A DNA stretch of 57,730 nucleotides, taken from positions 1 through 57,730 of IMG/VR virus record IMGVR_UViG_3300032328_001114; one strand, written 5' to 3'. The position numbers were made by a program, and so were the translations under genes. This document shows positions 3,983-22,980 of this stretch, in pieces. How positions within the stretch are numbered: the first letter of the stretch is position 1; each line of letters begins with the position of its first letter. This DNA comes from a virus (lineage: Duplodnaviria > Caudoviricetes). Below the pieces are notes generated by a model. The model did not search any database, was not told where the DNA came from, and saw only the letters and a list, made by a program, of their open reading frames with translations.

Positions 3983-5020
3983 ATGCGACAACTAACTATA
4001 TTCGACAAAATAGAGGAATCACCTCCGCAATCGCAGCCAAAGCAAACACAACTAAGCTACTTTGATGAACTATCAACAGGACTTGACGAGCTAAACCGTA
4101 TGAGTGATGACTTCAATAAAATGCTTCAGGGAATGCTCGACAAGGTGCAAGCCAATTGGAGCGAGGAGGAGAAGCTTAAAATAAATAACCCGAAGAAGTG
4201 GGAGGAATTATATTCACAACAACAAACTAAAATTGAAACAACAGAAATGGCAACAAAGATTGACGACCGCGCATTACAGGTCTTAAAACAATGCAAAGTA
4301 GATGGACTTAATGTAAGTCTCCCTGAAGGACAGTTGGAAAGAACTGTCTATACCGATGTAAAGAAAGCACTTGAATTGATTGGTGGCAAATGGAAAGGAG
4401 GCAAGACTCAGGCATTTGTTTTTCAAAGTGATCCTACAGATATGTTGGCCGAGATTGCCGCTGGTGAAAATCGAAACTTGAAGAAAGAGTTTCAATTCTT
4501 TGCTACTCCAAAGGAGCTAGCTAGGCGTTTGGTGCAATTGGCAGAGATAAGTGGCGGAGATACAATATTAGAGCCGTCGGCAGGACAGGGCGCTATCATC
4601 GAGGCTATTCAGGAGGAGCTTTGGAGTCTCGACCTCAAAACAGTGGTCAGCTGTTATGAACTCATGCCAGTTAATCGTGTAGTGCTTAAAAAAATGGAAG
4701 GCATTGAGCTGCTGGGTGAAGATTTCTTGGATGCAAAAGAAACTAAGAAGTATGATATCATCATTGCCAACCCCCCATTCGCAAAGAACCAGGACATTGA
4801 GCACCTTTATAAAATGTGGGCCATGCTCGCACCGGGTGGGCGCGTGGTGTGCGTGATGTCCAATCACTGGCTTAATAGCAGCACAAAGGCCTGCTGTGAC
4901 TTCAAGGCGTGGATTAGCTTACTCAATGCTAAGATGCACGACATAGAACCAGGTACTTTCAAAGAGTCGGGGACCATGGTCGGCGCTAAAATTGTCGTCA
5001 TCGACAAATACGGCCATTAA
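3983..5020 (+). CDS. DNA N6-adenine methyltransferase with an N-terminal extension
   Basis: QFFATP, motif I LEPSAGQG, motif IV IIANPPF, C-terminal FKESGT. Confidence 0.9.
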   Translation: MRQLTIFDKIEESPPQSQPKQTQLSYFDELSTGLDELNRMSDDFNKMLQGMLDKVQANWSEEEKLKINNPKKWEELYSQQQTKIETTEMATKIDDRALQVLKQCKVDGLNVSLPEGQLERTVYTDVKKALELIGGKWKGGKTQAFVFQSDPTDMLAEIAAGENRNLKKEFQFFATPKELARRLVQLAEISGGDTILEPSAGQGAIIEAIQEELWSLDLKTVVSCYELMPVNRVVLKKMEGIELLGEDFLDAKETKKYDIIIANPPFAKNQDIEHLYKMWAMLAPGGRVVCVMSNHWLNSSTKACCDFKAWISLLNAKMHDIEPGTFKESGTMVGAKIVVIDKYGH

Positions 5021-15107: not shown

Positions 15108-16577
15108 CTAGTATGAGCTTATTGAAGCCTTGTGTTTAGGTGCGAGCTCGAATATCATGCGCATCATTATCATGTCGGCAAAGTCGGGGCTTCTACCGAT
15201 AAGAATCTTCATTTCATCCTTGCTGATAATCTTAATTTTGCCCTCTCCATCAAAGGGTTTCTTTTTGATGCACTCTAATTCCTGCGCGATAAGGTCATTG
15301 TACATATTAGTTTCAATAAACATTCTGCGTTCATTGATATACTCCGAAAGCTTGTAGTAGCACTCAGTTTTAAGATTGACAAACTTGTCATCAACAAGGG
15401 GCTTGCTACCATTGACGAATGGACGTGCACCAGACAAGAATCCTTTTAGGAAGCTGCCTAGACCGTCGTGGTCGTATGTGATATGAGAGTTTGGCACATT
15501 GAACCTGCGTGCTAAGTCCTTTATAGTATCTAGCACGAGCTTTGAGTCGCTCTTATCTATTGAGACGACATGAATAAGCCTCCAGCCATCCCACACACCA
15601 ACAACGAACCTATCAGAGCCCTCGAAGGCGATGTCCGCAGTAATATATTTTTTGCCACCGCCTATAAAGTCGTTGGTGAACAGGTCTTTGATGGCCGCGT
15701 ACTGGTATAGTCTGTTACTGTCTTCGATATGCTTCCATGAGCCAGTGAGCAGGCGAGATTTCTCCACGCTGTCCTGAGAAAGCAGGTTACCCAAGTAGTT
15801 CGGGTCACTTTTAAGCAGCATTTTGTTTCCGTAGATGTCACCAAATACGAAAGTAGCAGACTTAACCATGCTTTCAGGGCTAATCTTTTGCTCTAAAAGT
15901 GTGTTTAGAAACTTCTTATTGAGGAATATATGAGGGCATTTATTGATAACTTCAGCTCTCGTATCGCCCCAAACATAGTTCTTACCGTCTCTAATGAAGT
16001 ATCGAACGACGCTATCCCTTTCCGGTATGGGCATACCCTGCAAGGATTCTATGTAGTAATCGTCTGGGTATATCCACCAAGATATAAATTTCTTAACCCA
16101 ACTGTTTGAATCAGGGTTGCAAGTGGCACGGATATAAGAAGGCACACCTGAAGGCGAACGGTTACGCGAGAGCATGTAAAAGAACTGCTCCTCGGAAAAG
16201 TGCGTAAGCTCATCAAATCCGATGAAAGGGATTTGTGAGCCTTGATAGCTGTACTTGTCGCTTTCGTGCTGCAAGTGTGAGAACTTTAGCTTACCACCGT
16301 TCTTAAACTTCCAAGTGAGATACACCTCTAATGCCTTTGGTGGTTCGGGTAACTTCCTGAATAGCTCCTGCGACGTGTCCCACAAGCCGCCTTGATTGCG
16401 TATTTGTGGCATGGTCCGCCTAAAGATTACACCACCGTAATTTTTCTTATCGGAAAACCTAATAGCTTCCATTAGCAGGCCGTAGGTCTTACCACCGCCC
16501 GCACTTCCGCCGCCGATCGTAATCTGTGCTGGGGATGATAAGAACTTTGTTTGGAATCCTGCTTGTGGTATAATCAT
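15108..16577 (-). CDS. terL: Terminase large subunit
   Basis: Walker A GGSAGGGKT, Walker B IGFDE, RATCNP, nuclease ADIA...D and RSPDFAD. Confidence 0.95.
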   Translation of the reverse strand: MIIPQAGFQTKFLSSPAQITIGGGSAGGGKTYGLLMEAIRFSDKKNYGGVIFRRTMPQIRNQGGLWDTSQELFRKLPEPPKALEVYLTWKFKNGGKLKFSHLQHESDKYSYQGSQIPFIGFDELTHFSEEQFFYMLSRNRSPSGVPSYIRATCNPDSNSWVKKFISWWIYPDDYYIESLQGMPIPERDSVVRYFIRDGKNYVWGDTRAEVINKCPHIFLNKKFLNTLLEQKISPESMVKSATFVFGDIYGNKMLLKSDPNYLGNLLSQDSVEKSRLLTGSWKHIEDSNRLYQYAAIKDLFTNDFIGGGKKYITADIAFEGSDRFVVGVWDGWRLIHVVSIDKSDSKLVLDTIKDLARRFNVPNSHITYDHDGLGSFLKGFLSGARPFVNGSKPLVDDKFVNLKTECYYKLSEYINERRMFIETNMYNDLIAQELECIKKKPFDGEGKIKIISKDEMKILIGRSPDFADMIMMRMIFELAPKHKASISSY

Positions 16578-17242
16578 TGGTCTGAAGCTCCTTCTCCCTT
16601 CTCCGTGGCTGCAATCATAGCCATTATCTTTGCCTCGTCAAATTCGGGAATGTCATTGTCGATACCATTGCCCGGCAAGACAATAATATTATTATTTTTA
16701 ATCTCTTTGCCTCCACTTGTAAGGTCGATGTGATTGGTGAGCAGTCCCAACAGCTTGCACCGCGTTTCGATGCACTTGAGTATTCCGTCCAGGCATTTCA
16801 AGTTACCTTCGAGCGAGGTCTTTGTGCTATGCTCAACAAGGATTTTTTGAGGCGCGTCTCCTGCTTCTTTGTCGTCGTCCGATTGTTCGCGGTAGCCCGA
16901 TGTCTTCTTGGTGATTTGTGGACCTAGTGACTTCTCATAGGCATCATGGTACATGCGCTCTAAGTTGTCTATTTTGGCAATCTCCTCGCCCATGCGTTGG
17001 TTGAAGTCAAGTATAGACGATTCCTCCCACCTTTTGCGGATTTCTTTTAAATCCTCATGCACTGTTTTTAGTGCTATGTGGTATAATGGGGGATTGCAGT
17101 CGCGTTCATTGAGCGCATCTGCAATTTTTTGAAGTGTAAAACCCTTGCAGTAAAGCTCTGCAACCTTTGCGTAGTCTTTTTCTAGCTGCTGCTCTGTCCT
17201 TTTAGGCATGCGCTTGTCCTTTGTCAGATTATCTTTAGCCAT
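16574..17242 (-). CDS. terS: Terminase small subunit
   Basis: HTH-like N-terminus (GFTLQKIADAL), IDLTSGGKEI C-terminal motif, ATGA overlap with terL. Confidence 0.8.
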   Translation of the reverse strand: MAKDNLTKDKRMPKRTEQQLEKDYAKVAELYCKGFTLQKIADALNERDCNPPLYHIALKTVHEDLKEIRKRWEESSILDFNQRMGEEIAKIDNLERMYHDAYEKSLGPQITKKTSGYREQSDDDKEAGDAPQKILVEHSTKTSLEGNLKCLDGILKCIETRCKLLGLLTNHIDLTSGGKEIKNNNIIVLPGNGIDNDIPEFDEAKIMAMIAATEKGEGASDQ

Positions 17243-17313: not shown

Positions 17314-17973
17314 TTAGAACTGTAAGTCAATTGCGCCAATTTTAGTGCCAGTTGAAGCCTCCAAATGAGTTGAACCCGTAAAGTTTTCGCTACAGAAGTA
17401 ATAAGCGTTTCCAATCTTTTTATAGTACATGTCGCCTCCGATACAAACGATACCAGCATTCCCTGCGTTGTTGTACTCCATAAAACAAGGCATATCGAAT
17501 ACGTTTTGCGGATTGGAAAAAGTAGGAACTTGTGGTATGCCTGTCTGCAATGTGAATTTTGGCACGGACCTATCGTATTCGTATCGCATGCCCAAGACAA
17601 TGCCAGGAAGTAGTACATCTTCGATAGGTGGATATACTTCTACAAAAACAGTGCAAGGATAGCCGAGATATGGCATATCTCCATCAAAGAAAAATGTTGC
17701 GCGCTGTTGATTTGACCTGTGCCAATTGGGATTTGGTGATGAGGCTACTTCTTTTACCAGTACACCAACAAAGCCCTTGCCGCCCATCGTAAGCGGAACA
17801 AGGGGTATAATGTCGTTTGTGGCAGAGAAGGCGGAACACTGCACAATGTCGCCTTGATTGTTGGCAACCTGTATAGTATTGCCAACAGCCCAAAACTCGT
17901 TCATAATCGTATTGATTTGAGCAAGGCTTATTCCATCAACCACATCCGATATTGCGCCTACGATGAATTCCAT
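17314..17973 (-). CDS. Hypothetical protein
   Basis: 219 aa, beta-rich; TAATG-coupled. Confidence 0.7.
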   Translation of the reverse strand: MEFIVGAISDVVDGISLAQINTIMNEFWAVGNTIQVANNQGDIVQCSAFSATNDIIPLVPLTMGGKGFVGVLVKEVASSPNPNWHRSNQQRATFFFDGDMPYLGYPCTVFVEVYPPIEDVLLPGIVLGMRYEYDRSVPKFTLQTGIPQVPTFSNPQNVFDMPCFMEYNNAGNAGIVCIGGDMYYKKIGNAYYFCSENFTGSTHLEASTGTKIGAIDLQF

Positions 17974-18197
17974 TACTTTGTTGGGGTTTTGTCTTTCTTA
18001 GTTGGCTCTAACAAGATACTAAGCACAGCAGGCACCCATGAGAACATGATAGATGCAGTGCCAAGTCCCATGTAGAAATTTTGGGCAAACATGAATTTAA
18101 TCATTTCCATGGAGAAAAGGCCGAAGCCTACACATATCATCAAGATACAAAGGATGCGCAAAAAACGCGAGATTCTTTTTTTCATTTGGTTATTCAT
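17973..18197 (-). CDS. Small two-TM membrane protein
   Basis: Likely start MNNQMKKR overlapping the stop of the upstream gene; two hydrophobic helices. Confidence 0.6.
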   Translation of the reverse strand: MNNQMKKRISRFLRILCILMICVGFGLFSMEMIKFMFAQNFYMGLGTASIMFSWVPAVLSILLEPTKKDKTPTK

Positions 18198-18753
18198 TTT
18201 TTGGAGTCCACGATTTAGAGAATTCACCGCTTTTGATGATTGTGGACTGGGGAATGCCTTTAGTAGATGCGAGTCTGAATACTTCTTCTTCGTCCATTCC
18301 CATGTGTGCCATAATTTCGCCAAGCGATACGCCTCTCTCAATAAGCGTTTTGATAATCGAACTCATGTCGATAACATTGTGGTTGCCCTTGGCTCGGTTC
18401 ATCATCACTGTTATCATTTCTACATTATCTTGCGGTATGATAACAATGGGTACATGTCCGTTTGTTAGATTAAATACCTTTTCTCGGCCTGATGTCATCC
18501 AACGGTGGAATCCGTCGATGATGGGCATAGGTTTGGTATTATTTATAACATTTGCTCCGCCGTGAGCGACAATAATCTCTGGCTTTTCGATTTGCATCAC
18601 TAAGATAGGGAAAACCCAGCCAATTTTCAAAATTGAGAACTCTAAAAGTTCTAATTCTGGCGGTGCTACATTGTTGGGATTGTAGTTGTTAGGGCAAAGG
18701 TTTTTGCGATGCGTCCAAAAAACGCGGCTTACAGGCTGTTTTGTGAGATTCAT
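18190..18753 (-). CDS. ibrB: IbrB-like ParB/Srx-fold protein
   Basis: QPVSRVFW, PNNYNPNNVAPPELELL..SI...GW..P, IIDGFHRW, NRAKG.H; likely start at ATG 18753. Confidence 0.85.
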   Translation of the reverse strand: MNLTKQPVSRVFWTHRKNLCPNNYNPNNVAPPELELLEFSILKIGWVFPILVMQIEKPEIIVAHGGANVINNTKPMPIIDGFHRWMTSGREKVFNLTNGHVPIVIIPQDNVEMITVMMNRAKGNHNVIDMSSIIKTLIERGVSLGEIMAHMGMDEEEVFRLASTKGIPQSTIIKSGEFSKSWTPKNE

Positions 18754-18757
18754 ATTT

Positions 18758-19999
18758 TTATTGATTGAAAAATTCTGGGTATTTTTCTTTACAAATTCTT
18801 TGGTATTTTTTTGTACCAAACTTCATAACTGCCTCGGCGAATGTAAGTCCGAGGTTCTTTTGTGTTTTTTCAGAATTGCTGGATGCTGTGCCGGCTATTC
18901 GTTGTTTAAAGTCTCCCTTTATAGCAATCTTACAAAGGAACTTCCAAGATACGCCCGAAATAACATCGGGTGTGTCTTCTGTTATATCTAGGGTTGACTT
19001 TTTATAGTGCATATCAATCAGGTCATCAATATTTTTCTTCACTATCTTGTACTCGGCATCGTTGTAGTTTTCGAGTGCGAGCTCTGTGTATTGATACCAC
19101 GTTAAACCTTCGGGTGGTTTTTTCATGCCAACAGAATAGATTGGAGTATTGGCATAGCGAACGGCAGCGCCTACACCTTTCACGCGAGTACAAAGCTTTG
19201 CCCAGTAGGCAGGGAAACATTCTTTGTAAATCCAAAGTCCGCGTATTGGTTCCTCTCCGAAGGGCGCGCAGATGCGTTGGGCAGACAGGCGGTTGTTCAT
19301 GGTAGTTTTATTGAACATGTCATAGCTCACATTATAGTCCCAACCGAATTTTGATACAGCTATCCAAACATCTTCAGCACTCCAATCGTAAATTGGATGC
19401 GCGTTTGTAAGGTTTTTCAATTTCCCTCCTCCGGGAGCGGTGATATAGTTGTCGTTTTCCCTTGTGGCCATTATCCTGTATCGACGCAGGGATTCAGACG
19501 AGCGTATTCCTGTCACAATTACGACCTTTCCGAGTTCTTTGTCTTGAAATAAGCATTTGAACGCGTAGGGTATTCCTGTTTTTTCATCCTGTTCAATACC
19601 GTTGAACCCTTTTATCTTGGTTATGGCATGGGCAGGCATTGGGCGAACCCACAAATCCTTTTTTGTCGGGTCCCATGACCACCAAAACGGTTCTAGGTTG
19701 GAACAGGCGTTGCGATGCTTGATATTTACGCAGTACCAATACATTTCTACCTCGGGCCGTTGCATGGTGCGCTCTGCAAACTCGATTGTTTCAAAGTTTA
19801 TACACTCCTCGTCAAAGAATACGGTTTTTACTGGCAGCTTGCCCATTTCTCGTGCAACTTCGATAGTTACGTTGAGCGCAGCTGTAGAATCTTTGCCGCC
19901 AGAAAATGCAACGACAACAGTATCGAACTGCATGTATAGCTGTCTAATGCGCTCCTTTGAAGCCTCATAGACGTTTACATTATTGTATTTCTTTTTCAT
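18758..19999 (-). CDS. ibrA: IbrA-like PAPS-reductase-fold PP-loop protein (DUF3440-type)
   Basis: NVYEASKERI, AFSGGKDS, GIRSSESLRR, HPIYDWSAEDVW, QRICAPFG. Confidence 0.88.
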   Translation of the reverse strand: MKKKYNNVNVYEASKERIRQLYMQFDTVVVAFSGGKDSTAALNVTIEVAREMGKLPVKTVFFDEECINFETIEFAERTMQRPEVEMYWYCVNIKHRNACSNLEPFWWSWDPTKKDLWVRPMPAHAITKIKGFNGIEQDEKTGIPYAFKCLFQDKELGKVVIVTGIRSSESLRRYRIMATRENDNYITAPGGGKLKNLTNAHPIYDWSAEDVWIAVSKFGWDYNVSYDMFNKTTMNNRLSAQRICAPFGEEPIRGLWIYKECFPAYWAKLCTRVKGVGAAVRYANTPIYSVGMKKPPEGLTWYQYTELALENYNDAEYKIVKKNIDDLIDMHYKKSTLDITEDTPDVISGVSWKFLCKIAIKGDFKQRIAGTASSNSEKTQKNLGLTFAEAVMKFGTKKYQRICKEKYPEFFNQ

Positions 20000-20520
20000 T
20001 TTGTTATTTCACCTGTTAGTAATTCAGAACCTGCAAAGGGTTTCGAGCAATAGTATAGTGCGCTTTCTCCACCGCTCACATACAACTCCATGCCTTTTGC
20101 AAATAAATTGAAACGTTTTGTTTTAAGTGAGTAAAAAGCGACTGCAAAGGTAGATATAGCGCATAGTTCAGCGGCTTTTTGTATGCCATGCCTTGATATT
20201 TGTCTGCAAAAGTATTCAGTATCTGAGCGCCCATCGTGGGCAGTGAGCGCACCATTGAAAGTAAAGACAAGATTATTTAAAACAATTGGTTGCAAAAATT
20301 CTATGTCCTTTGATGTTCCGATTATGGTGTGCAGTCGGGCATGGCCGATGATGATGTTCGATGTGTATTTTTGTTCCTGGTACTTACCGAGATAGCGGCT
20401 TATTTTCTGCCCATCGAAATAACCAAAGCCATCTGGGCCACGTTTGCAGGCAAGTCGCGCGAGTTGGTTTAGTAGTTTATTGTCCGGCTGTTCGCCAATG
20501 AATCCGAAAAGTCCGCACAT
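19996..20520 (-). CDS. Class II (Ntn) glutamine amidotransferase
   Basis: N-terminal MCGLFGF (nucleophile Cys2), RGPDGFG, GHARL, QPI, NG, SDTE. Confidence 0.88.
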   Translation of the reverse strand: MCGLFGFIGEQPDNKLLNQLARLACKRGPDGFGYFDGQKISRYLGKYQEQKYTSNIIIGHARLHTIIGTSKDIEFLQPIVLNNLVFTFNGALTAHDGRSDTEYFCRQISRHGIQKAAELCAISTFAVAFYSLKTKRFNLFAKGMELYVSGGESALYYCSKPFAGSELLTGEITK

Positions 20521-20521
20521 G

Positions 20522-21289
20522 TTACAAGGTTTTTAAAAATGCTTCTGCAGATGGAATATAGTTGGCGGCAAATTGTAGGATGGTTGGGTCTATTTGGTAG
20601 ATTTCCGCCCAGGCATGTTCGTGTGATTCGCACCACTGGCGAGCTGCCCATGGATGGGTGCCGCATCGGTAACCGCGAGGCCATGAGTAAAAAGGCGGAA
20701 TTGGCAGCTTTGAGTAGTGAATGACCGCAAAAACATCTTCGTGTGTCCAGTCAGCTAGGGGAGAATAGCGCAGTAGGTTTTGATAGGTGTAGTGCTTCAT
20801 GCCTGCACGGCCAACAAAATTACCATCCTCGCGCCTGCGGCCAAGGATAATAGTATCGAGTTTGTTCTCTGCATAATACTTGCGCTGTGCCCTGTGCTGT
20901 ACTTTTCTAAACCAATTGCCTGCTATCTCTGAATTGGCAGGGAAAAGCATTTCAGGATTTTTTAAGAGCCAAGCCATATCAAGCCCTGTGTTGATGACTG
21001 TCAGCCCTTGGGGCATGTTCTCAGTTACCCATCGCAGGAATGCAGGATATTCCAAATCAGATATGCCCAACATGCACTCATGTACGCCTGCTAACTCGCA
21101 AACGTACTGTAGTGCAATGCTATCTTTACCACCCGACCAAGAAAATGCCGCATGAGGGTGTTTACAGATAAAGGATCGTATTTCAGAAACGGCGCTGTAT
21201 ATAAGCTCCTCGGTTTTGTGCCGAGGTCTTTGTTCTGCTTTCTCCTTTATTAACAAAAAATCCTCATGCGTCAAGCTCTGTTTTTTCAT
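20522..21289 (-). CDS. Second PAPS-reductase-fold PP-loop protein
   Basis: SWSGGKDS, LGRRREDGN, SPLADWTHEDV. Confidence 0.88.
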   Translation of the reverse strand: MKKQSLTHEDFLLIKEKAEQRPRHKTEELIYSAVSEIRSFICKHPHAAFSWSGGKDSIALQYVCELAGVHECMLGISDLEYPAFLRWVTENMPQGLTVINTGLDMAWLLKNPEMLFPANSEIAGNWFRKVQHRAQRKYYAENKLDTIILGRRREDGNFVGRAGMKHYTYQNLLRYSPLADWTHEDVFAVIHYSKLPIPPFYSWPRGYRCGTHPWAARQWCESHEHAWAEIYQIDPTILQFAANYIPSAEAFLKTL

Positions 21290-22059
21290 TAATCGGTGGT
21301 TTTAGTTCGGATGTTGGATATTTCACGCGCAGAAATGCCGTTCACGATAGTGCGGTTCACCATTGGGTGATCGTCATGCTCGGGGCCAAAGTCGCTATCT
21401 GGATGGAATGCCACAATTTTCATAAACTGGCCGCTTCGGTCGGTTCTGAATTTGTGTGCTTGCTCGGTTGCCAAATAGAAGATGTCGCCCTTTGCAAGTT
21501 CTAACTCCTCCAAAGGTGTAACCGCTTGCCCTGTGCCACTAAAAATACAACCCATTCGGCATGATGGGTGTGTGTGCATGGTTTGGTTGATGCCTTGGGG
21601 CATATAGAGCGCATTTAGGCAAGGCTCACCGATGAGAGTAGGGGAGATAAGCAAGGTATCAGTGCAGCCGTCGATGTATCGCAGCCTTCCGCCTGATGGC
21701 TCGACTTTGATAATGCAGTGCATTGATTTGTTTTCTTCCTGCTTGATGACAAAAAACTTAGTGTTTTTGCCAATAGTGAAAACAAATTCGCCCGGCACAG
21801 AGAATGCCTCCCCTCGCCCAATCCTTTTACCCTTACGGCCTGTTTTTAGGTGCAAGTGTCCTTGTATTACATATCCGTAATAACTACCGCCGTATAGCTC
21901 TATTTTTTCGCCTGCTCGGCTTGGGTGCGCTTGTGTATCGTAGCCGAATAGCGTCGAATTGCCTTCTTTAGCCAAGCAACCAAAGTATTTCGAGAATATG
22001 AAGCAATTTTCCGAGATACTTTTGACGTAAGCGCAGGATGAAAATACAGTCTTATCCAT
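21289..22059 (-). CDS. Bicupin-type protein
   Basis: GRLRYIDGCTD, QTMHTHPS.R.G and H.FRT...FHPDSDFGP; metal-binding His cupin motifs. Confidence 0.8.
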   Translation of the reverse strand: MDKTVFSSCAYVKSISENCFIFSKYFGCLAKEGNSTLFGYDTQAHPSRAGEKIELYGGSYYGYVIQGHLHLKTGRKGKRIGRGEAFSVPGEFVFTIGKNTKFFVIKQEENKSMHCIIKVEPSGGRLRYIDGCTDTLLISPTLIGEPCLNALYMPQGINQTMHTHPSCRMGCIFSGTGQAVTPLEELELAKGDIFYLATEQAHKFRTDRSGQFMKIVAFHPDSDFGPEHDDHPMVNRTIVNGISAREISNIRTKTTD

Positions 22060-22918
22060 TTTCTGCCGTTAATTTTTCGTATTCCTTAACAATATGAATC
22101 AAAGCATCGGCATTAGTTCTAAGTCCTAGCTTTGTTTTTACTGCAAAAATTACTTCAGTTAAAAATTTCTTTTGGCTGTACTCCATCACTTCATTGTAGG
22201 ACACAAAGTCATATTTGGCGAGCTTTGTCTGTTCGACTACTGGTTGCGTTTCTTTTCTGCCCTCCGCTTTAGTCTCATACGCTTCTTGTACCTCATCCTC
22301 CGCGTCGAAGTCTTCATCTTGAGACTCCTCATATTGCACAGTCTTATGCTCAACTTTGGGAGTTTCGTTATCCCGATTCTCAGTTTCATTGGTTGGAGTT
22401 GGTTTGGAATTGCTTAGTGGCTCGCGCTTGAATGACATGTTCATGTTTTCCATTTCTTTAGATAGTCCCTGGGCGGACTTCATAAAGTCGAGGTTATCAA
22501 ATTCGAGGAATGAAACTGTTTCTAGGGAGAAAGAAACATCTTCCATGTCGGACATAAAGTTTTTGAGTCCGCTCTCGGTGATTTTACCGTAATGCGAATT
22601 CAAAAGCAGGAGCTTTTCTTTAGCATCCTGCTTATTTTTCGCATCTATGAGTAGAAAATCAATTTTGTAGCTGCCTCCGAATTTTACGCCATGCTTTTTG
22701 TAGATTTCGAGGCGTCGATGACCGTCCAAGGAGTAGTATTCTCCATCTTCTGAGTCACGAAATACAAATTCGGGGACAAATTTACCCTTACTTTTGAGAG
22801 AGTTGAGGAGCTTGCGCTCATCGTCGGGGTTCATTTTTTCTTTCAGGTCTCCCTGAAATGGCTTTACCATGCGATAGTCCAGCTTTACTAAGCTGTACTC
22901 GCTCGTTTCGATGTTCAT
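22052..22918 (-). CDS. ParB/Srx-like N-terminal domain with an acidic linker and small C-terminal helical domain
   Basis: FQGDLK, KLLNSLKSKG, LDGHRRL, NSHYG. Confidence 0.8.
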   Translation of the reverse strand: MNIETSEYSLVKLDYRMVKPFQGDLKEKMNPDDERKLLNSLKSKGKFVPEFVFRDSEDGEYYSLDGHRRLEIYKKHGVKFGGSYKIDFLLIDAKNKQDAKEKLLLLNSHYGKITESGLKNFMSDMEDVSFSLETVSFLEFDNLDFMKSAQGLSKEMENMNMSFKREPLSNSKPTPTNETENRDNETPKVEHKTVQYEESQDEDFDAEDEVQEAYETKAEGRKETQPVVEQTKLAKYDFVSYNEVMEYSQKKFLTEVIFAVKTKLGLRTNADALIHIVKEYEKLTAENG

Positions 22919-22948
22919 TTGCTTGCTTATTTGGTGTTAAATAAAGCC

Positions 22949-22980
22949 CAAATATATAGCATTAATCGGGTTTACTGCAA
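22949..22980 (-). promoter_or_regulatory. Promoter of the ParB-cupin-PP-loop operon
   Basis: Minus strand TTG (22980-22978)-N21-TATATTTG (22956-22949), 30 nt above the ATG. Confidence 0.7.

Follow-up and report, generated by a model that had tools for sequence, protein, structure and literature searches.

The 57,730-bp genome of the tailed phage IMGVR_UViG_3300032328_001114 (an IMG/VR record, analysed over its whole length and called the window here) encodes on its minus strand a six-gene cassette built around two PP-loop enzymes and two ParB-like proteins. Comparison with related loci resolves this cassette into a core, formed by a ParB-like protein, an IbrA-type PP-loop enzyme and an IbrB-type ParB-like protein, and a variable slot that holds a bicupin and/or a second PP-loop enzyme, which we call PP255. 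Judged from sequence, the cassette may serve a late-expressed modification of phage DNA, in which PP255 and a glutaminase (a class II glutamine amidotransferase, GATase) would carry out an ATP-dependent amination or amidation; we put the chance of this slightly below even. The six genes, in their order along the minus strand, are as follows.

22052..22918, minus strand: ParB1, a ParB/Srx-type protein (phrog_723, 'ParB-like partition protein', 1.6e-9).
21289..22059, minus strand: bicupin with a predicted metal site in its C-terminal barrel (Cupin_2, 34 bits against a cut-off of 27.2; AlphaFold2 (AF2) model).
20522..21289, minus strand: PP255, the second PP-loop (SGGKDS) enzyme, of a 3'-phosphoadenosine-5'-phosphosulfate (PAPS) reductase-like clade (PAPS_reduct, 7.6e-9; phrog_424, 2.4e-24).
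19996..20520, minus strand: GATase, a stand-alone class II (N-terminal nucleophile, Ntn) glutaminase of 174 amino acids (aa) with a Met-Cys start (TIGR01536, 1.6e-7).
18758..19999, minus strand: IbrA-type PP-loop enzyme (PAPS_reduct and DUF3440; phrog_2302, 2.4e-86).
18190..18753, minus strand: IbrB-type ParB-like protein of 187 aa (phrog_2159, 1.3e-50).

An open reading frame (ORF) check found all six genes where an earlier, sequence-only reading of this DNA had placed them, and each protein family named in that reading was matched. Its claim that the genes are spaced by no more than 4 nucleotides (nt) stands for four junctions (cupin to PP255, -1 nt; PP255 to GATase, +1 nt; GATase to IbrA, -4 nt; IbrA to IbrB, +4 nt, with IbrB beginning 4 nt after the IbrA stop) but fails for ParB1 and the cupin, which overlap by 8 nt (-8). 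IbrB most likely starts at ATG 18753 and not at TTG 18819, because its family hidden Markov model (HMM; 1.2e-70) aligns from residue 22.

We assembled 202 related loci, 122 from PP255 seeds and 80 from independent cupin seeds, and identified the six components in them with profile HMMs built from the first loci found. With a PP255 alignment as the seed, we recovered 49 loci from viruses and a further 80 from species-representative genomes, the latter mostly of gut Clostridia, with a few Bacteroidales and one Acidobacteriota; four loci (L057-L060) with distant PAPS-reductase-like proteins, 23-27% identical to PP255 and without cassette neighbours, were dropped before counting. IbrA and/or IbrB accompany PP255 in 43 of 45 viral and 79 of 80 genome loci; among the exceptions, two loci break off just past PP255, and in a third (L028) the ~6 kb that follow hold no core genes. 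From a 51-sequence cupin alignment we obtained 80 viral loci, with IbrB in all 80, IbrA in 79 and ParB in 75, the commonest order being ParB-cupin-IbrA-IbrB (58 loci). Over all 202 loci, the IbrA-IbrB pair is kept in 201, and a ParB is found in 195 by a profile (ParBc3) that included ParB1 of the window.

Dereplication on IbrA left 103 loci, among them 39 with the core plus PP255, 34 with the core plus cupin, 13 with PP255 and GATase and 8 with PP255 and cupin. The full six-part set occurs in 4, and 2 more carry all but a detected ParB, which makes the window a rare full set (4-6 of 103 dereplicated loci). Gene order varies: the nearest PP255 relative (L012, 59% identity) lies in a locus arranged ParB-IbrA-IbrB-PP255-GATase-cupin, other loci run PP255-GATase-ParB-IbrA-IbrB, and two high-GC prophage contigs, found in an alignment-based GATase scan, carry PP255-GATase-IbrA-IbrB in the order of the window at 26-41% identity. 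The six genes had been taken as a single pathway in the sequence-only reading. They do co-occur in many other genomes, in permuted orders, but only ParB, IbrA and IbrB form a core, to which a cupin, PP255 or a GATase may or may not be added; a joint chemistry of cupin and PP255 in this phage would be a guess.

Relatives of the cassette region at ~90-95% identity were found on contigs of three kinds, from a microbial mat, from freshwater sediment and from a freshwater metagenome, and a ~93% identical relative from another study is a 3,871-nt contig that covers IbrB through a portion of the cupin gene and differs by 262 letters and 6 gaps. Among GenBank phages, the region had no match at the DNA level, and neither the GATase nor the cupin had one at the protein level; PP255 has one match there, in an unannotated metagenomic record. 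Scans of viral contigs with the single GATase or cupin protein returned no match, whereas alignment-based scans succeeded. Distant GATase relatives (L004-L011) stand without cassette genes.

Both PP255 and IbrA carry an SGGKDS PP-loop that is conserved in the relatives of each. In PP255, which has 674 relatives, the PP-loop residues together with R152, N157, H183, Y201 and W214 are invariant in an alignment of 55 sequences, and in none of its columns is cysteine invariant or conserved to 90% or more; the cysteines that the window protein does contain fall at positions of partial conservation. Its AF2 model (pLDDT, predicted local distance difference test, 96.6) matches enzymes of the PP-loop ATP pyrophosphatase fold at Z 12-16, with FAD synthase, PAPS and adenosine-5'-phosphosulfate (APS) reductases and CysD tied at Z 15-16, followed by NcsA, GMP synthase, TilS and LarE. 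A sequence search of solved structures returned only weak PAPS-reductase and TtuA matches for PP255 and none for IbrA. IbrA has two domains, both above cut-off (PF01507, 2.9e-12; PF11922, DUF3440, 4.6e-13), and across 177 unique sequences it keeps the SGGKDS motif and one conserved cysteine (C90).

An identification of PP255 as CysH was considered and rejected, since it misses the cut-offs of curated PAPS-reductase models by far (TIGR02057, 21.9 bits against 254.2; NF002537, 26.1 against 154) and has no conserved catalytic cysteine in the 55 sequences. As a separate observation on IbrA, one locus (L025:8418-12375) holds three tandem IbrA paralogues, 45-47% identical to the IbrA of L002, between its GATase and IbrB genes.

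PP255 has two kinds of companion. The gene that lies upstream of PP255 encodes, in at least 75 loci, a protein with at least six predicted membrane segments. All eight of the ~460-aa membrane proteins tested are sodium:solute symporters (SSF, PF00474), and two shorter ones (~333-341 aa) gave no convincing match. Of the 122 loci from PP255 seeds, 91 encode a protein of at least six transmembrane segments in or beside the module, 27 have a GATase and 5 have both; of the remainder, 7 lack a membrane protein, a GATase and a cupin, and 2 have PP255 with a cupin only. No locus among these 122 has a cupin and a membrane protein together. In a quick-search, midpoint-rooted tree of PP255 (82 dereplicated rows), the symporter forms make up one 60-row clade with a Shimodaira-Hasegawa-like approximate likelihood ratio (SH-aLRT) support of 98, symporter+GATase forms and one Bacteroidaceae GATase form stand at its base, and GATase and GATase+cupin forms fall outside it. 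This distribution would fit a glutaminase and an importer acting as alternative suppliers for the same enzyme, PP255.

The GATase of the window scores 24.9 bits against GATase_6 (cut-off 27), and its relatives in L002 and L003 score 40.4 bits; its TIGR01536 match covers the N-terminal part of that model (AsnB). It has the features of a class II (Ntn) enzyme, with the catalytic Cys directly after Met, a conserved Arg, an Asn-Gly pair and an Asp: C2, R27, R62, N89, G90 and D100 are invariant in 16 sequences and at least 95% conserved in 29 relatives, and their individual roles presumably follow those in AsnB. Only two close relatives are present in the indexed protein collection. GATase and PP255 are adjacent in every locus that has both, consistent with the pairing of a PP-loop enzyme with a class II GATase that had been proposed from the window. 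In three loci the PP255 and IbrA genes point the same way and the GATase gene (L016:7722-8375, L024:7717-8382 and L093:7695-8477) lies between them in reverse orientation; the L016 and L024 GATases start Met-Cys-Gly.

Such pairs of PP-loop enzyme and glutaminase classically act on small molecules, which brings in the alternative that the cassette makes a modified deoxynucleoside triphosphate (dNTP) before replication or an auxiliary metabolite, including viral 'cysH' sulfur assimilation. GMP synthase, NAD synthetase and asparagine synthetase are among the fold matches of PP255, the linkage to a symporter suggests a small-molecule input, and viral cysH genes, including the DUF3440 clade, are classed as sulfur auxiliary metabolic genes in a preprint (10.1101/2021.01.05.425418). 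However, the PAPS-reductase cut-offs are far missed, PP255 lacks an invariant cysteine, and the surveyed loci show no linkage of the cassette to genes for polymerases or dNTP processing. The obligate pairing with two ParB-like proteins and the terminase neighbourhood described below also fit metabolism poorly, and we regard a small-molecule substrate as rather improbable.

Next, we examined the position of the cassette in 66 dereplicated loci with at least 4 kb past IbrB, 58 of which have an ORF of at least 1000 nt there. In 40 of these 58 (hand count), a terminase or portal Pfam match lies within 4.5 kb downstream of IbrB. The terminases near the cassette span four unrelated families (TerL_ATPase/nuclease, GpA, Terminase_6 and Terminase_3), and the cassette therefore heads packaging genes in unrelated phage lineages, so that the link to packaging genes seen in the window is a general one. 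The remaining 18 loci have no terminase or portal match; 14 of them have no match of any kind, often with ORFs of 470-560 aa. Further genes found after the cassette include Phage_portal_3 portals with a C-terminal NUDIX domain (L065:12512-14365, L075:12554-14467 and L097:12565-14733), a fusion that is unusual for a portal protein, as well as an aldehyde dehydrogenase (L021:10279-11760; PF00171, 4.7e-137) and a C5 cytosine DNA methylase (L157:11149-12885).

The position that 40 of 58 loci share, ahead of the packaging genes, would also suit a regulator or packaging accessory, whose ParB-like proteins would bind or slide near pac/cos or a late promoter, with IbrA and its accessories handling a nucleotide-derived switching cofactor; ParB-fold proteins are described as nucleoside triphosphate (NTP)-dependent switches (PMC12704722). 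It would nevertheless be unexpected for such a device to recruit enzymes and importers as varied as a bicupin, a second PP-loop enzyme, a glutaminase and a symporter, and the catalytic residues of the PP-loop enzymes and the glutaminase are conserved. We therefore assign this alternative a small probability.

The ParB-like proteins bear on the question of the target. In ParB1, an acidic linker connects an N-terminal ParB-like domain (with a DGHRR motif) to a small helical domain at the C-terminus. The protein matches TIGR00180 at only 0.0015, and an exhaustive search found 1648 relatives at E<=1e-3. A profile of 25 ParB1 relatives matches a profile of 11 cassette ParBs with 98.1% probability (E 7.8e-14, 208 columns) over both the N-terminal ParB-like and the small C-terminal domains, and by this comparison ParB1 is a member of the cassette ParB family. 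Relatives in that family match ParB_N in 5 of 7 cases (1.2e-7 to 6.6e-4), mostly below cut-off. IbrB has the motifs NxYNPN and DGxHR, the conservation of which was examined in 162 sequences.

Longer relatives of the ParB1 N-domain were scanned for fused domains, and 20 of 25 contain an N6_N4 DNA methylase, one contains PAPS_reduct and four contain nothing recognisable. We consider DNA the likelier target because ParB1-type N-domains are fused mostly to DNA methylases, and these fusions, the best evidence here for the module acting on DNA, point to such a role. Domain fusion, in the one relative of 25 with PAPS_reduct, is likewise the best evidence here that the ParB1 type may work physically with PP-loop enzymes. 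A 455-aa protein (P0381) joins a ParB1-like N-domain and PAPS_reduct, with an FSGGKDS PP-loop, in one chain; the PP-loop part of this protein resembles neither PP255 nor IbrA closely.

The alternative to a DNA target is a protein, for instance a carrier of the ParB-like kind, a component of the packaging machinery or virion, or a protein of the host; its side-chain or C-terminal carboxylate would be adenylated and then amidated by way of the glutaminase. Sulfiredoxin and serine kinases, whose substrates are proteins or amino acids, share the ParB/Srx fold (PMC12704722), the PP255 model matches a QueC-like PP-loop protein in complex with a modified protein (9nto, Cap9-CdnD, Z 9.6), and the cassette adjoins terminase and portal genes. 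The 9nto match is, however, weak next to those at Z 15-16, no conserved candidate target protein was seen in the module across the 202 loci, and domains of the ParB1 type are fused mainly to DNA methylases, which together leave a protein target improbable.

The bicupin has 1080 relatives, and its AF2 model (pLDDT 93.2) folds into two beta-barrels. H162, H164, H202, H219 and H231 are invariant in the 51-sequence alignment, in which three cysteines are at least 90% conserved. Over the whole chain, the closest folds are those of (S)-ureidoglycine aminohydrolase/DUF861 bicupins, namely DR1152 (1sfn, Z 20.3), ureidoglycine aminohydrolase (4e2q, Z 19.0) and YlbA (1rc6, Z 18.6), matched over 198-207 residues, followed by BacB and ring-cleaving dioxygenases. 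Unlike those bicupins, to which it is 8-14% identical, the cassette cupin family has a His-rich set specific to it, and the shared fold, as modelled, would not give the function. A sequence search of solved structures returned generic cupins only, and an ESM Atlas search returned nothing beyond cupin clusters. The assignment of this protein to the cupins is borne out by the Cupin_2 match and the beta-barrel model; an oxygenase role is not implied, because the bicupin fold is closest to proteins of the ureidoglycine-aminohydrolase type.

Additionally, we compared the cassette with known systems that use related enzymes. In the complete genome, PF00266 (Aminotran_5, cysteine desulfurase) has no match, with a control search positive in 14 of 14 genomes, though a host cysteine desulfurase could substitute; TGT/DpdA (PF01702) has no match either, and there is no true QueC, the IbrA PP-loop reaching 11.9 bits, below cut-off. 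PADLOC gave weak DndC and BrxP matches only. As the sequence-only reading had argued, the cassette belongs neither to the Dnd/Ssp nor to the 7-deazaguanine systems: on this evidence Dnd/Ssp, sulfate assimilation and 7-deazaguanine systems are excluded because there are no DndC/CysH cysteines, no desulfurase and no TGT/DpdA.

The exclusion bears most directly on the possibility that IbrA works like DndC/SspD and phosphorothioates the DNA backbone, for which there are weak partial similarities of IbrA to TIGR03183 (3.5e-9, 36.1 bits against 290.4) and to the PADLOC DndC model (2e-12). DndC binds a 4Fe-4S cluster through three cysteines and has a cysteine dyad besides (PMC10853773); IbrA has a single conserved cysteine in 177 sequences, the genome has no cysteine desulfurase of its own, and no DndD/E-like partners were seen in the loci. 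Phosphorothioation by IbrA is accordingly very improbable, and backbone sulfur chemistry in general is an unlikely target modification.

Some likenesses to characterised systems remain instructive. Like DndC/DndB and the type 4 BREX protein BrxP, which belong to systems that act on DNA (PMC10853773 and PMC12839542), the cassette encodes a PAPS-reductase-like PP-loop enzyme with a ParB-superfamily protein; unlike them, it has neither Fe-S cysteines nor a dyad in IbrA and PP255, and no desulfurase or DndD/E partners. Compared by family matches and descriptions, the window pair also resembles E. coli IbrA/IbrB (and their K-12 paralogues YbdN/YbdM) in combining a PAPS_reduct and DUF3440 protein with a ParB-like neighbour (phrog_2302, phrog_2159). 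YbdN is described as a PAPS reductase/DUF3440 protein and YbdM as a ParB-like nuclease-domain protein, and both are uncharacterised genes under YbdO repression (PMC9068703). The window pair differs in its additional partners, namely another ParB-like protein, the bicupin, PP255 and the glutaminase. Since no biochemistry of the reference pair is known, the comparison can name the window pair but offers no mechanism for it: in line with the earlier reading, a literature search on IbrA/IbrB, DUF3440, YbdN/YbdM and phage PP-loop/ParB combinations found no biochemical study.

The closest experimental parallel, and the only case found with an experimentally shown role of a ParB in a DNA-modifying enzyme, is that of 5mYOX + ParB, in which ParB activates a subclass of phage DNA thymine dioxygenases and in which the gene clusters also contain GATases (PMC13229309). 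That source credits Iyer et al. 2013 with the hypothesis that ParB directs modification enzymes. Here too, a phage ParB-like protein with an NTP-binding-type N-domain, a linker and a C-domain, and with no obvious DNA-binding domain, is encoded next to a beta-barrel metalloenzyme. In contrast, the barrel of the window is a His-rich bicupin with no TET/JBP enzyme in its fold lists, and the PP-loop enzymes of the window have no counterpart there. Tet_JBP (PF12851) has no match in the genome, the control search being positive in no genome either.

For the chemistry, two groups of PP-loop enzymes offer models. In glutamine-dependent PP-loop amidotransferases, an ATP-pyrophosphatase domain adenylates an oxygen, and ammonia takes its place; the partner of this domain is an Ntn or other glutaminase. 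Like AsnB, NAD+ synthetase, GMP synthetase and GAT-QueC, the cassette pairs a glutaminase with a PP-loop enzyme, and PP255 shares the fold (Z 8-14); unlike them, it has the two activities in separate small proteins, and PP255 belongs to the PAPS-reductase-like branch and not to the AsnB, NadE, GuaA or QueC branches. TilS, ThiI, MnmA and TtuA/NcsA adenylate a base carbonyl in a polynucleotide, which a nitrogen or sulfur nucleophile then replaces. PP255 matches these folds at Z 12.8-14.5 but shows no sequence-level membership, and its target would be DNA, with ParB-like partners.

From the gene linkage, the conserved motifs and the exclusions, we infer a substrate and a chemistry for the cassette. 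Expressed together with the packaging genes, it would modify phage DNA ahead of packaging, with the ParB-like proteins loading or activating the enzymes on DNA, as for the phage thymine dioxygenases. IbrA would adenylate an oxygen on the target (ATP to an AMP-adduct and PPi), PP255 would perform a second adenylation, and ammonia released from glutamine by the glutaminase would displace AMP; in the symporter versions, an imported nucleophile or substrate would take the place of ammonia. The modified base would then carry an amino or carboxamide group, and the bicupin might contribute a metal-dependent tailoring step, either hydrolytic or oxidative.

In a more specific form, the cassette would be a DNA counterpart of lysidine/GMP-synthase chemistry and install, after replication and just before packaging, amino or amido bases undescribed in any DNA. 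A base oxygen, or a carboxyl made on the base, would be adenylated and then replaced or amidated with nitrogen, and the nitrogen supply would be modular, with a glutaminase here and a symporter-imported compound in gut prophages. This form is speculative and on balance unlikely. Iyer et al. 2013 is said to have predicted lysidine-like DNA bases made by PP-loop enzymes, and part of the amino/amido-base proposal may already be in print there.

Several observations weigh against DNA modification by amination or amidation. The top fold matches of PP255 tie enzymes of very different chemistries, the rooting of its tree is not established, and the cupin and PP255 mostly occur in separate loci. The window GATase falls below the Pfam cut-off, and neither ParB1 nor IbrB has a match to ParB_N or any other family in the Pfam scan. 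An HMM built from the c3 ParB family alone missed ParB1, a single-sequence hhalign comparison likewise gave no link between ParB1 and c3, and the ParB count over the 202 loci was made with a profile to which ParB1 itself had contributed. The argument for DNA as the substrate draws on gene context and domain fusions, which would suggest such a substrate indirectly.

The surroundings of the cassette are those of a tailed phage in a complete genome with direct terminal repeats, with PHROG matches to terminase, capsid/protease, tape measure, endolysin, recombination and replication genes. The features flanking the six genes are these.

22949..22956, minus strand: candidate promoter element TATATTTG, a TAnnTTTG match 31 nt upstream of the ParB1 ATG.
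17973..18197, minus strand: small hydrophobic ORF of ~74 aa that overlaps the IbrB stop, with no family match in Pfam or PHROG.
17314..17973, minus strand: 219-aa ORF between the cassette and the packaging genes, with no family match in the libraries scanned.
16574..17242, minus strand: putative small terminase subunit, named by position only, with a 4-nt overlap with terL.
15108..16577, minus strand: large terminase subunit, terL (Terminase_6N, 4.1e-21; phrog_979, 2.9e-95).

The promoter that the sequence-only reading gave to the cassette is represented by this TAnnTTTG motif only, and a sigma-70 scan found no site there. TAnnTTTG, which we take to be the Bacteroidota -7 promoter consensus, occurs at 84 sites in the window against 61.5 +/- 8.5 in shuffled sequences, and none of 100 shuffles reached 84; an excess over the whole window would fit a Bacteroidota-type promoter motif and host, given that consensus. 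A scan found no terminator-like site between the cluster and the upstream amidase gene. Downstream, terL is confirmed by its Terminase_6N and phrog_979 matches, but the gene called terS has that name from its position only; its sole match is phrog_645, labelled 'RNase E' (2.4e-11), with none in Pfam or NCBIfam. Far from the cassette, a 345-aa ORF at 3983-5020 on the plus strand matches DNA methyltransferase PHROGs (phrog_9133, 4e-58; phrog_15406, 1.2e-36) and is a candidate for a conventional DNA methylase in this phage.

Pairs of the IbrA/IbrB type rank with the most frequent enzyme genes in phages and prophages that lack an explanation, the cassette is widespread, and its genes are usually annotated as sulfur-metabolism genes or 'co-activators'. 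With a fixed core, exchangeable add-ons, a constant place ahead of the packaging genes and no sulfur-handling residues, this vague annotation becomes a testable proposal. The glutaminase version provides an experimental handle, because labelled glutamine nitrogen should reach the product. If the cassette does make a new DNA base, it would add to the means by which phages evade restriction, and it may provide new enzymes for the labelling of DNA.

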